A stretch of 63,146 bases of DNA, counting the filler, from Hausera hauseri (Eukaryota), in assembly GCA_046269625.1 (NCBI GenBank). It is 11 parts of 11 records of this genome, joined end to end, with 100 filler letters (N's around TTAATTAATTAA, not from the genome) between each part and the next. Parts side by side here need not be neighbours in the genome. Positions count along the whole stretch, not along the records: positions 50,760 to 58,786 come from JBJURY010810976.1; positions 58,887 to 63,146 come from JBJURY010671662.1; 9 more parts are not named here. The stretch is one strand, 5' to 3'. Shown here piece after piece: positions 51,508 to 60,002 of this stretch. Under the pieces are notes generated by a model, which was not told the origin of the DNA, did not search any database, and was given only the letters and a program-made list of their open reading frames with translations. The position numbers were made by a program, and so were the translations under genes. Every line of letters starts with the position of its first letter. Position 1 is the first letter of the stretch.

Positions 51508-52527
51508 AATTCAAATTGAAGTCTAAAGAATTTTTAAAATCTATTTATTTTATATCAGATATTTAAACAAATTAAAAATAAATAATATTTTTGCGTATTA
51601 TTCATTTTCGCTGCTCCATTACTTATATTGCCCGAATGCAAGATCGGTACGTATCTAACCCTTTGAGGATTTGGTATTAAGTTGCAAAGGTTTGATCACA
51701 CAATAAAGACAGTTTTGGTGCAGACAATCGTAATTTTTTCGCACTACCAACGAACTCAGCTGCAAAGAATATTATAAGAAACTAACACTGATAAACACAA
51801 GACTTCTTCAAATTGTCATGAAGTGGTCGTTTGTATATACTAAACGAAACTGAAACTCAAACGGAAACCGAAACCGTTACAATTGTACAGTTGAATTACG
51901 AATTGTATGTAAATAATTAAATTACAAGTCCAAAACATCGTATCCAAATGGAAAATACAAATAAACCGACAAATGAATTAATTAAAAATTCAAAATTTAT
52001 TATGTAAATCTAAATTAATGTAAATAAACGGATCTCGACTGCTATATAAGTCGATGTACAGAGACAGTAGTTGTCATTGTTAATCAGTCAAATACAAGTC
52101 AGCGAGTATTACTATCAGACAAATTGTTCAATTATTCCAGGACTTCAAAAGACTTGACGATTAAATTCGATACACTGATTACGTTGTTGAAAATTACTTG
52201 TATTGCTGATCCGACATTCTTATTATCGGTGAAGTATAGTTGTTATTTGAATAAATTATTGTATCTTAAAAACTTCTATAGTTTTTCCGTCGCTCCGTAC
52301 GATGGACTTGCACCACACTACGTTTTAAAATCGATTTAAAATTCATAGTTAGGTTGAGAAATTTGTAATTTACGCAATCACCGCACGCAGTACACGCAAG
52401 TTAAAATAGTGCAAACCTTCTAACGAGAACGTTATGACTTATCTGCTTTTTAAAACATTGTTAACTTCGAGTTTTATTACTGTTATAAATGGGTGTTGGA
52501 TAGGGCCCACCCTCAACTACTAACATC

Positions 52528-52545
52528 TGGCGACCTTAGCAGGAC
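52528..52545 (+). promoter_or_regulatory. Primer-binding site, tRNA-Arg-like
   Basis: LTR end ...ACTAACA (52525), 2-nt spacer, then TGGCGACCTTAGCAGGAC. Confidence 0.8.
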
Positions 52546-54871
52546 AGTTTGCACTTGCTAAACTTGACTTTTAGTAAAAAGTAGCGACATATTCGCGATC
52601 AGCGCTACCACATCAAATAATTGATTGTAGATTGTTATGAAATTAAAATATTGGGATTATAAAAAAGCCCGCAGTATTATAACGGCATATTATCAAGAAC
52701 GAATATTGATAGACATAAGTCAGAGGATAACTTAAATCTCATTCTAAACGGTAAGGAGAATATTAATTTTCGCGAAACACGTAATAGAGTTTATAGAGAA
52801 GTTAAGACGTTGAGTAGACGCACTTTATCGACATCAAACTTAATTAGCACTGAACCTATTGATCTAAACGTTGTTGAACAGCCTACTGAATTTAAAGTTC
52901 CGGACAAGAGAATTAGAACTCGTAAGATAGTCAAGCAAAATCTAATAAACGTTGAGAATATGGTTGAAAATTAAGCAGTAGCTCAAAAGTTGGACATTTT
53001 CGCATTTGATTCTCTTAATCTGCCGGCGTATTACTAAAACCCGGACGGACTTAATGAATTCTTAAGGACATAAAAGTTGCATGCAGAAGATGCTGGACTA
53101 GCAGCTAATGTGACGATTAAGCGTTTTTCATTATATTTAAAGAATCTGGCCGCTGATGCGTATAGCGAACTCATGGATGATGAGAAGAAAACTTGGTCCT
53201 CACTAGTAGGAGCCCTGAATCGGAAATTGTTACCGACTGTAACTCCGCAACAAAAACTCATGGCTTTTCAGAATAGAGTGCAACAAAAGGGTGAATCGAT
53301 AACCCAATTCGCTTTTGCATTAAAGAAATTAGAAAATAGCTACGTAAGCACTTTAAGGATAGTATAGCAAAGGCTAAAAACGAAGCAGAACGTGAAGCCG
53401 CAGAAAAGGCAAGTCCTGCAGATTTGGACGTCATGATGATGACGCAATTAATAAACGGTATTTGGTCTAAAGACATAGTAGAGCAACTGATTCTAGCACG
53501 CTCGGAGAATTTTGGTAGGACATTGCAATTAGCCCAAGACTTAGAAATGGCATTAGCCCCGTATACTAGAGACAATGACAGAAATGATAGAAACAATGAT
53601 CATAGCGATCGGAGCGATAGAAACCGAAATAATAGAAATGATAGACGGTTTAACCGGGATCGAAACAAGAACGGTAATTATAATTGCAGAAATGATCAAT
53701 ATAGTAATCAGAATTTTGATAATAGCCGAAATAGTTTTTCTACTAAATCAAACTATCAAACAGATAAACCCCTAGATGGCTCTAAAAACTTTAGTCGACA
53801 AAATGCCAACCGGAATTATGATAATCGCCAATACGGAGACCCTAGACAGTCTCCGTCGCAACCGAACTAAAATAGAAATCCGAGTAGATATAAATCTCCG
53901 TTAAACGAAGACGGCCGGCAAATAGTTGGAAGAAATGGCAGTTTAATCTGTTTCACATGTCGACAAGAAGGACACATAGCGAGGTCCTGTCCGAATCCGC
54001 GAAGTGTCTCGTTTGTGTAACCTAGTAAGACTAACGTAATTAAAAATGAAAATTTAGAAGCAATTTAAGGTGTTCGTAGAGACACAGGAGTGATTATCGA
54101 GATACAAGATTTGCGACGATTCTTAAAGGCCCAGCCTGATACTAAAGACCCTAAAGTTCTAGTGGCTAGGAACGAGTACGAAAGCAAGTTACGATTATTC
54201 GAAGTTTACCATGGTCTGCGTGAACGAGAGACGGAATATTAACGCTCCATTGCACCGCCAAGACTCACTGATATGGCGCGGAAGAAGAACATTCCTACGA
54301 CAAGTAAAGGGTCGGATGAAGCAGGAAAACTTGGGACTCCGGACAAAGTAGATTTAGACGTAGCGTCCGAATATACGATAGAAAGGGATCCCAAAGCGTA
54401 AAACCAGACGAGGGGAAAGAATTTTTGGAACCGCTAATTCTTAAAATTACAAAGAATAGAGGCCGTAGCCTATCACTGAGGCGGAAATGCAAGGATCGCT
54501 CGAGATCCCCGATGGTTAAGAAACCGGACACAAAGACAGATATAGAAAGCGTGTTGGAGAGCGACACTGAGTTTGCTCTGAGCACTCCAGAAATTAAAGA
54601 GATAAGTAGTGGAACCGTATCCATAAATGAGATAAATGATATATGTCCTTTACCCACTAGCGAATAGGAAACAGAACAAGAGGAGAAACTCTATCCTAAA
54701 AAGTGGAACATCAGACGCTTATGAAAAAATGCAGAGGAATTAAAAAGAATGAGAACAAACTGTCTCAACCCAGAGGTATTACGACAGAACCTAGAGAAAC
54801 TCAAAGCAATGAGCGAACAGGTGGATATTTCTGGTAAGGAATAGCAGTTTGTAGAAAGATTATATAAAGAA

Positions 54872-57096: not shown

Positions 57097-57099
57097 CTA

Positions 57100-57500
57100 C
57101 CGCTATCGACGAAACAAAGAAGGAGGCGCTTAGATAATTTCTCGCTTTTCCCCGCAAACGTACATATGAATTAAACAGAGCAATGCATACAAAATTATAG
57201 GACTCGCGCTATCAGGCAAAATGGGAGTCATTACTTGGTGTTGGCTATTACATGAAGGTAACTACAGAAATATTATACAAAATTTGGGGAAGAATCCTGG
57301 TATTCGGACAAGCTGCGTCAGGATTTCTAGCGATATATTTCTTAATTCAACTGGTAAAAGCTATAATTCAAGCAATTATAAATGGATACGAGATCTTCAA
57401 CTTGACAGGATTTTCGTGCAAAATTTTAACGGCTATTATTACACCTTTCGATAAATTCTTAAAGGCTTATGAAAAAAGTAAATGGAAAACAAATGTGGAG
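57100..57500 (+). pseudogene. C-terminal part of a chuvirus-type envelope glycoprotein
   Basis: FLAFPRKR..LN..; IWGRILVFGQAASGFLAIYFLIQLVKAIIQAIINGYEIFNLTGFSCKILTAI matches the W..F..FG..SAG..GI......K......I.GY.L....GWS..L..AI tail I recall from chuviral glycoproteins. Confidence 0.65.
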
Positions 57501-60002
57501 CGACATGTGGACTACCATAATTGGAAACGCACAAGACACATATTCGATTGTAGACAGAAATTCATAGTCAGTAAGATACGAAGAAATAATTCCGATGATG
57601 ACGAGCCTAAGGGAGGAGACGTTGTTGGAACCAGATTGACTGGTTGGGTAATCCGGTCAAACTTCTGCAGGAGAGGTTTAGAAGAGGTATAAATGTATAT
57701 GTGTATGTATTGTGCAAATGTATATAAGGACATGATCGCCGAAGGACCTTTGATCTTATCAGTGATTTTAAGGTTATTTGAGAGTTGTGTGAATAATATT
57801 GTTATGGTTTATTGTTACTTTCTCTGTTGGATGAGCCCTGCCGGGGTTTGCGTGATGAGGATGAATGACTGTGTGCCTGATAAATTCAGTACGCATGTTT
57901 TGGGCCACAAAATTAATGGTGGAGAAATTCCCCCGGAGAGCAGCACTCCGAAAACAATGGCTAGGTATGTTGAAAAAATTAATTTAAATGTTTTTTTATA
58001 TTTATATATATTTGGTAAAGGATATATGGGGATATATAAACCGGTGTCTATGAAATTAAGGTCATGTTTAAAAGAAAGTAGATATGTATGGGAAATAAAC
58101 GTACATATACGTCATGCTTTAGTAAAAAAGCAGGGGTTTCTCGGGGACAACAAACAAAATTATGTAATTGAAGTTCACCGTCCGGATTGAAATCTATTAA
58201 TGGGGAATATTAATGTGAATTTAAATGGGCCCAGCAAACCACTAATTAAAAAGGAGGCATCCATTTATAATAATGTGGCATTTATAACATATGGGGGATT
58301 TATTTATAATGAGGCATCCATTTTATATCATCCAGACGTTATCTCCAGACCGAACAGGCGCAAAAATTACTCTGTTATGAAACTACCGTGACCAATATTG
58401 CCGCCAATGGCACCTATATATGAAGATTGCGAGAAACAATATATGAGCTCGTGTCAGACAGACGTCTATCAGAAGCCATTTAACATAGATGATCCCTACG
58501 AAGGAACAAAACGCTACGGGATACTGCGCAAGATCCACGAAACAGAGAGAACGTTTATCCCACATCGTCGCTCAGCAGTCGACGATCACGGTATAATATA
58601 TTCACCTAGAGTACCTAGACCAAATGAAACGCAGTCACCATTTACCAGAAGTTGTGAGACACGCAATCTCCGAAACCAAGATGTTCAGCCGCCAATTAGA
58701 AGCCAAGAAGTAGAAAACGCGAATGGTACGAATAATGAACTATACCCAATTGGAGAGCTAAGACAGTTAATCGAGCAGCCAGTTGGNNNNNNNNNNNNNN
58801 NNNNNNNNNNNNNNNNNNNNNNNNNNNNNNTTAATTAATTAANNNNNNNNNNNNNNNNNNNNNNNNNNNNNNNNNNNNNNNNNNNNGGTCAGCGGAAACA
58901 GGAAGTGGCTTGTAAAATTCGTAGCTTTGACTGGAACACACTTTCTGTCAACATTTGTTACTTCCTTCCTCCTCGTCTTACCCACCTCCCTCTCTGTGAC
59001 ACAAACACGTGTCATATAATACACTCCAGTAAAACACGCCATCTGGTGACACAGTACACGAGTCCACAACGCACGCGAGTAAAAACAACACACACCAGCT
59101 GGTGACGCAGAACACACTTGTCAAATACTAGCTTAGTCACATGGTGCACACGCATGCCATTTACTACATCAGTGACACAGAAAACACACTTGTCATATAC
59201 TACCTTAGCGACACAGTAAGCACCAGACTAAGACCCACCATTGTTTACATGTTAAATCATCTCGACAGCGTATATAAAATATGGTCAGATAATATATACT
59301 TATTAATTCAAACTAATAATTCGTAGTGTTTATACATCATCATTAAAATCAAATATTCGATTCGAACTGATATGGCAACGAAATCATTAACCAGTTAGGG
59401 GTCAAAATTTACTGGTGATGGTATACCGAACGGTGTAATAAGGTCCATGGACGTAGCGACAAATATTTTGTCAGTTAAAGGGTCAAAAGGAGTCTTTTAC
59501 TAATTTGGTTTAAAAAATGAAAGCAAAAGCCGAGGAAAATATTTTGCTTTACAAACAACGTGAGCACTGATTAGCTTCAACGGATTAACATCAATTTAAT
59601 ACAACGTCGACTGGGCAAAAGAACCTTCACATAACTGTATTACTGCTCTCTCTCAGGAGAATTAAATTTACTGTAGTACAGACGATCAGTTGGAATGAAA
59701 TTAAATGACTTTCTCTGGTAATAGGAGTCTTCTTGTTCGATCCCTCATTATGTGTAAGCTTGTGTAAGTACTCACTGGCCCATATCCAATCTTAGCGAAC
59801 TTTTTTGGGCGTAGTATTCGTCAACTTGACTTTTTTTCTCTTTCTGAAATCTGTTGTTCTCGGGTTATTTTAAAAGCCAATTATAGACACAAATTGATAA
59901 TTTTTCATTTGTTGAGTTCAATTTTAAATGAGAATTATGAAAAGTTTATAATATAATAACAAAATATAAACAATGATAGAGATAATTTTACTAAATACTA
60001 AC

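Follow-up and report, generated by a model that had tools for sequence, protein, structure and literature searches.

Domain order along the contig

We analyzed a 63,146-nucleotide window (positions 1-63146) of the Hausera hauseri assembly GCA_046269625.1, and the subject of this study is a decayed retroelement located on one of its contigs, at positions 50760-58786 (JBJURY010810976.1). The window is made of 11 short contigs of 4 to 9 kb joined by spacers, each of which reads as an N-run, TTAATTAATTAA and another N-run; therefore, features on the two sides of a spacer are not to be linked. On the plus strand, the element consists of the probable 3′ end of a 5′ long terminal repeat (LTR), a primer-binding site (PBS)-like 17-mer, a gag region, a long helical region, a probable ubiquitin-like (Ubl) domain, the C-terminal part of an envelope glycoprotein (env stub), and a tail that is interrupted by a nested solo LTR and resumes behind it up to the contig end. 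This domain order, the nested solo LTR, the frame reaching the contig end and the presence of the Ubl-stub junction in several diverged copies were all observed. A preliminary description of the locus had spoken of a polyprotein. The coding path is not one open reading frame (ORF): it meets a stop in frame 14 times and changes frame 4 times. The present copy is therefore dead and, with its stops, frame changes and insertion, it cannot make the polyprotein.

For comparison we used the contigs of two coded public sequencing runs, X1 and X2, in which the sampled words of 52400-58700 were present at fractions of 0.35 and 0.10. Contigs of X1 covered 30 of the 30 bins of the contig and those of the second run 29 of 30, with thousands of short records and identities mostly of 90 to 99%. 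Since thousands of similar short records in both runs cover the element, it represents a multicopy family in related material. Summed contig depth, which was not taken as copy number, fell far below the gag and stub level at 51832-52367 and at the Ubl-stub junction. Because no listed run contig spans the whole stretch, long-range linkage rests on the present assembly.

The env stub and its junction with the probable Ubl domain

The env stub (57123-57497, two stops) was assigned by a profile match and hydropathy to the C-terminal portion of a glycoprotein of the chuvirus (HSV/gB) type. PF24664, the Monjiviricetes fusion glycoprotein family, matched it over model positions 485-610 of 653 with an E value of 2.1e-15 and a score of 56.2 bits, versus a curated cut-off of 27, and this was the only such stretch in the six frames of the contig. 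Thus, the chuviral affinity of the tail proposed in the preliminary description was borne out when the profile check was run. Model positions 1-484, corresponding to the ectodomain of about 480 residues, were unmatched in all six frames. The HSV/gB-type ectodomain, which comprises domains I-V with their cysteine bridges and comes after a signal peptide or a first membrane segment, is therefore absent here. No match to the env stub was obtained among PDB sequences, nor was any relative found among longer proteins by a word-based search, a kind of blank that carries little weight.

Two hydrophobic segments had been described in this part of the element. One of them, at about 57324-57380, is a clear membrane segment with a Kyte-Doolittle (KD) value of 2.18, and the second, at about 57393-57449, is weaker (KD about 1.4). 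Upstream of the stub there is no hydrophobic segment (maximum KD, 1.13). Three or more K/R residues within 15 residues occur after the second hydrophobic segment (net charge, +4) and are absent after the first.

The stub follows the Ubl domain closely, the distance from the domain to PF24664 position 485 being about ten codons. In the present copy, the junction (57091-57122) contains a frame change, found near 57092, in agreement with the earlier placement near 57095. Diverged copies were informative here. One X1 contig (record 6) bridges the junction over 56936-57127 with 36 differing letters in 193 (about 81% identity); the frame change is lacking in 4 contigs, and 11 further contigs continue past 57090 with letters like those of the window. 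Contigs that divert into unlike sequence amounted to 1% of 1,051 for X1 and 3% of 80 for X2, with 137 loose ends beyond those listed.

Differences among the copies in 56780-57380 were then sorted by codon position. Among the 40 best-supported of 116 places, 21 fell in the third codon position (p 0.01), and the share rose to 21 of 31 (p 9e-5) after 9 places were set apart at which almost every copy has a letter other than the window's. With this split, third positions accounted for 7 of 8 places in the stub alone. In the helical frame, 7 of 11 places were third positions. The occurrence of the junction in diverged copies, together with the third-position bias, therefore indicated an amplified subfamily rather than an assembly error. 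By these sequence comparisons, the membrane part of the Ubl-stub form would have been kept under apparent selection.

A nested solo LTR and the end of the contig

A polypurine tract (PPT) followed by TGTTG had been taken as the 3′ end of the element, an assignment that did not survive. TGTTG at 57623 is the start of a nested solo LTR of another family (57623-58334; 712 bp, TG...CA), which is flanked by a 5-bp target duplication, GACGT, at 57618-57622 and 58335-58339; the probability of meeting this 5-mer by chance at any one position is about 6e-4. Contigs of both X1 and X2 join across 57623-58334 and thus represent empty sites, with a net skip of 717 (712 + 5) in 8 of the 10 joints listed, the table holding 17 further rows. 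In 7 X2 contigs, the purine-rich run in front of 57623 is a different one, which is what a 3′ LTR belonging to another family would show. The supposed PPT is coding sequence and belongs to the start of the tail behind the membrane segments (57498-57622), which is first basic and then acidic. Beyond the solo LTR, where the phase of the env frame is identical to that before it, the frame continues over 58335-58786 for 150 Pro/Arg-rich codons with one stop and runs off the contig end. This continuation has no match in Pfam or NCBIfam, and the tail after the env stub comprises at least 190 codons.

No protease (PR), nor any reverse transcriptase (RT), RNase H (RH) or integrase (IN), was matched in the six frames of the contig at E ≤ 0.05, which includes 6.3 kb after the PBS. 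The earlier statement that none of these domains is present therefore stands for the contig. Since TGTTG opens the nested solo LTR and the frame resumes to 58786, however, the claim that the element lacks pol is unsupported. The earlier view that part of env is missing was borne out by the absence of model positions 1-484. The contig ends before the element does, and from the absence of pol it can thus be concluded only that pol does not lie ahead of env. By analogy with published elements, pol likely lies downstream of the contig end.

The 5′ end and gag

The probable 3′ end of the 5′ LTR (52494-52525) ends in CTAACA and is followed, after two bases, by the PBS-like 17-mer (52528-52544), which begins with TGGCGACC. 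This LTR-like end ahead of the PBS was the only one observed: the contig holds no second copy of it and no LTR pair, and it stops before the 3′ end of the element. There are no tRNA genes in the window, and the 9-base complement of the 17-mer is not in the PBS table of PMC13524379, as far as the accessible part of that source goes. Kinship of the 32 bases before the PBS with the nested solo LTR was considered and rejected, the score of 20 to 28 being at the level of shuffled sequences (mean 27, similar alignment).

The gag region (52960-53990), recognized by Pfam profiles, is decayed: it contains several stops, and the frame shifts near 53350. It consists of a capsid portion at about 53122-53334, an N/R/D-rich linker and a single knuckle of the form CX2CX4HX4C, the only CCHC knuckle in the whole window. 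The knuckle matched zf-CCHC at 53949-53990 with an E value of 1.7e-5, and the capsid matched Retrotrans_gag with an E value of 0.003, under the cut-off of Pfam. A Retrotrans_gag capsid and a CX2CX4HX4C knuckle behind a PBS are features of Ty3/gypsy (Metaviridae) elements and are shown by the present element, with the gag match here being below the cut-off. A PBS-like 17-mer and the gag with its CCHC motif were recovered in line with the first description, as were the helical region and a probable Ubl domain.

A second gag-like frame, unrelated to the first, occupies the minus strand at 50760-51530; it faces away from the element and continues past the contig edge. It is densely covered by X1 and X2 contigs and has no Pfam match; the DNA that separates it from 52494 may represent its LTR or leader.

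The helical region and the probable Ubl domain

Between the CCHC knuckle and the Ubl domain lie about 960 charged, helical and partly coiled-coil codons (53991-56877) without a family match, close to the 1000 or so noted before. The longest open part is 54845-56449 (534 residues), and frames change near 54400 and 56670. A periodicity of 3.5 residues was found in 27% of the 28-residue windows of this open part, versus 7% on average and at most 18% in 100 shuffles. The Smc profile did not match the helical region, which shows heptad periodicity only.

When a 790-residue helical frame was searched with HMMER against 1.84 billion representatives, one match was obtained, P0001 (E 1.5e-16, 37% identity). 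It is a 150-residue singleton from a 2,157-base ENA contig and aligns to the end of the helical region, with 41% identity over 104 residues. A word-based search among longer or similar-length proteins gave no relatives of the 534-residue ORF, such blanks being weak, and pattern scans gave no relatives in viral and metagenome contigs. An Rfam search returned 0 matches, and NCBIfam gave no match of significance.

The Ubl domain (56878-57090, 71 residues) is probable, on evidence that is weak to moderate and all concordant. Sequence matches were weak, with E values of 0.03 for UBX and 0.12 for ubiquitin in Pfam and 0.067 for the best PDB entry. A single-sequence model of the 71 residues (predicted local distance difference test score, 63) has a beta-beta-alpha-beta-beta layout, and the Foldseek list obtained with it is dominated by SUMO and ubiquitin chains, the SUMO rows having probabilities of 0.77 to 0.98 and E values of 0.03 to 0.1; rank 1 is protein L. 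In VIA-align, the best Z was a middling 5.0, and many beta-grasp domains scored 3.8 to 4.5. The layout came from the trimmed model only, since a longer, 147-residue single-sequence model of the region was all-helical and had no Foldseek match. These sequence and model comparisons suggest that a ubiquitin/SUMO-like (beta-grasp) fold is likely, not proven.

Comparison with known elements

The preliminary description held the combination of domains to be undescribed. A comparable layout has in fact been published for the planarian element Burro/GYPSM1 (PMC6431247), whose polyprotein contains retrotrans_gag, CCHC knuckles, Smc, MATH, Ubi2/SUMO-like, BCL2-like and env parts. Its env is in frame between gag and pol, matches fusion glycoproteins of arthropod and fish mononegaviruses, and has also been likened to gypsy (F-type) Env; there are two or three CCHC knuckles, ORF1 is about 4,900 residues long, and the element exceeds 30 kb (PMC6431247). 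As far as the contig reaches, our element shares with Burro the order gag-CCHC, helical region, Ubi2/SUMO-like domain and env in one frame. It differs in having one CCHC knuckle instead of two or three, in lacking a MATH or BCL2 match and the env ectodomain, and in having the Ubl domain directly on the membrane stub.

The accessible text of PMC13524379, which treats "ancient errantiviruses," reports that, in Platyhelminthes, Nematoda and Bryozoa, gypsy elements with an env have only the HSV/gB type, related to Chuviridae glycoproteins, in the order GAG-ENV-POL. It lists 9 flatworm elements, all ENV_HSV, and argues for an ancient env association and not a recent capture. The present element resembles these flatworm, nematode and bryozoan elements in its gypsy-type gag followed by a chuvirus-like env, which in them precedes pol, and differs from them in lacking the ectodomain. 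The published GAG-ENV-POL order therefore predicts pol downstream of env here. Elements with large truncations were left out of that survey, whose main text, to the extent available, mentions neither ubiquitin, SUMO nor Burro. Equating its six Schmidtea mediterranea elements with Burro by their span was tried and dropped, as the coordinates given in the part at hand appear to include flanks.

Anakin, a BEL/Pao element of mosquitoes, also carries this glycoprotein family in an LTR element according to the accessible portions of PMC7642597 and PMC10084718. The glycoprotein is whole there and the element is of the BEL/Pao type, in contrast to the Retrotrans_gag-type gag, one knuckle and mere stub found here. 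The sORF2/FAST-like proteins of the MDG1 group, as far as the available part of the preprint describes them (bioRxiv 10.1101/2025.03.14.642691), share with the stub the features of a short membrane protein with a basic patch, which here follows the second hydrophobic segment and not the first, and no fusion ectodomain. sORF2 is a separate ORF of 63 to 107 residues and mostly myristoylated, and the FAST-like criteria in the same preprint text call for a separate ORF of 60 to 210 residues, an N-terminal MGxxxS/T and a tail of <150 residues. Most of these traits are missing here: the stub is internal to a polyprotein, its tail extends over 190 codons or more, and it is an env homologue. Troyka elements were considered because of a CG after the purine run; in the part of PMC12440569 available, they are defined by a CX2CX8-10HX4C knuckle, CGCCA...TGGCG termini and no env, and they were ruled out by the CX2CX4HX4C knuckle, the CTAACA end and the env stub.

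The accessible parts of PMC13238120 and PMC8532177 added nothing on domain structure. An ectodomain-less, Ubl-fused env stub was not reported in the literature searched, subscription papers and Repbase lying outside this coverage. The layout was already known from flatworms, and what differs is a modest twist: the reduction of env to a membrane stub, common to several related copies.

Other features of the window

The remaining contigs contain several further features, the first five given here being on the minus strand. By eye, the neighbouring genes resemble those of animals. An ORF at 8994-9488 shows, by eye, a DTG motif with retropepsin-like surroundings and has no Pfam match at E 0.05; it lies on a different contig and is therefore not the protease of the present element. 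An STT3 fragment (E 3e-19) at 11355-12431 lies in an open frame that continues into unrelated-looking sequence and is possibly a retrocopy or a chimera. At 26770-27408, one ORF combines DNA_pol_B_2 (E 1.4e-5) with Endonuclease_7 (E 1.4e-4), a fragment of a protein-primed polymerase element. The minus strand of 35568-41746 carries decayed ankyrin repeats (Ank_2 E 8.7e-5), then a 351-codon ORF with an exonuclease-like end (by eye) and no Pfam match, and also a 201-codon ORF with a RING-like motif (by eye); this ankyrin-exonuclease-RING set is possibly cargo of a large mobile element. At 48500-49194, also on the minus strand and on another contig than the element, a gag-like ORF without a Pfam match has a decayed knuckle-like motif right behind it (by eye). 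On the plus strand, 29212-33818 is a 1,342-codon open frame resembling an axonemal dynein heavy chain, with an internal part seemingly skipped (by eye). Tandem repeats of 41 to 100 bases, followed by cysteine-rich ORFs without a Pfam match, occupy 41988-44390.

Discussion

We reasoned that the locus probably holds the 5′ part, now decayed, of a Ty3/gypsy-like element that contains gag, a helical region, a probable Ubl domain and an env stub, with pol likely lying beyond the contig as in Burro and the GAG-ENV-POL elements. In its ancestor, gag and pol would have been separated by a complete chuvirus-type env in the same frame. Since env would lie in the frame leading to pol, env could be lost only in frame, and in one lineage a frame-keeping deletion may have removed the upstream signal-anchor and the fusion ectodomain. 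The env-shortened lineage would no longer be infectious and would spread by ordinary retrotransposition inside cells. Loss of env can favour spread within a genome. The stub was likely retained since translation of every pol protein would have to pass through it. The two hydrophobic segments of the stub, with the basic patch behind them, could form a hairpin that tethers the precursor to the membrane with gag and pol both cytosolic. Later, the present copy would have gained its stops, frame changes and insertion.

Several observations weigh against this account. Pol was not observed in the contig, and its position is predicted by analogy; no full-length relative was found in protein, viral and metagenome contig searches. 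MATH, BCL2 and BIR gave no match and there is one CCHC knuckle, not two or three; hence, the element is not Burro itself. For the Ubl domain there was no Foldseek match at E ≤ 0.001, and the membrane topology proposed above is a prediction from hydropathy. As for selection, the codon-position test covers the 40 best-supported of the 116 places, and its split by depth share is a heuristic. In a separate listing of six env places, 0 of 6 were third positions; at these places almost every copy departs from the window. The third-position signal in the stub could also draw on copies with a full env, short contigs not separating the two forms.

Among the other explanations, a nonautonomous family without any pol, built of gag, Ubl, stub and tail with an LTR past 58786 and mobilized in trans, would accord with the lack of any pol domain in the 6.3 kb after the PBS and with a lineage that has already shed parts, env having been deleted. 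We regard it as rather unlikely, since its proposed 3′ end turned out to be the nested solo LTR, published env-before-pol elements would not yet show pol at this point, and the third-position bias speaks for a frame kept under selection among copies. It is very unlikely that the stub is no deletion product at all, with the ectodomain never present between the Ubl domain and the membrane part in this lineage, and with either a full env at another place in the element or capture of the stub by itself. Almost no contig leaves the path of the window at the junction and no full-env relative was found, as such an origin would have it, yet the start of the homology, at model position 485 and some ten codons past the Ubl domain, is abrupt, and in Burro a BCL2-like motif and then env follow the SUMO-like domain (PMC6431247), which fits a loss between them.

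Chance nesting of unrelated fragments, or misassembly, could be imagined for a short draft contig that comes from repeat-rich surroundings, has an unrelated gag-like frame next to the element and contains a nested solo LTR. It is nonetheless extremely improbable: X1 contigs cover all 30 bins, the domain order is that of published elements (PMC6431247), and the bridging of the Ubl-stub junction in diverged copies largely refutes it at the junction, which the preliminary description had likewise not put down to chance. Within the account of a decayed element that lost its ectodomain by deletion, a further proposal concerns the stub itself, which may have been kept as a working part, either as a membrane anchor for the gag-pol precursor or, by analogy with FAST-like proteins, as a minimal cell-cell fusogen derived from a class III envelope and freed by the protease of the element; we consider such a function quite unlikely.

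For annotation, these results correct a false "pol-less enveloped element," a picture that arose from the solo LTR nested in the tail and from the end of the contig. Loss of infectivity in elements with env before pol seems little examined, and surveys have dropped truncated envs, as the accessible text of PMC13524379 indicates for its own. If the stub is indeed a retained working part, evolution would have led through it directly from an enveloped element to spread without an envelope. The amplified subfamily offers a natural case for what an envelope anchor does without its fusion domain.

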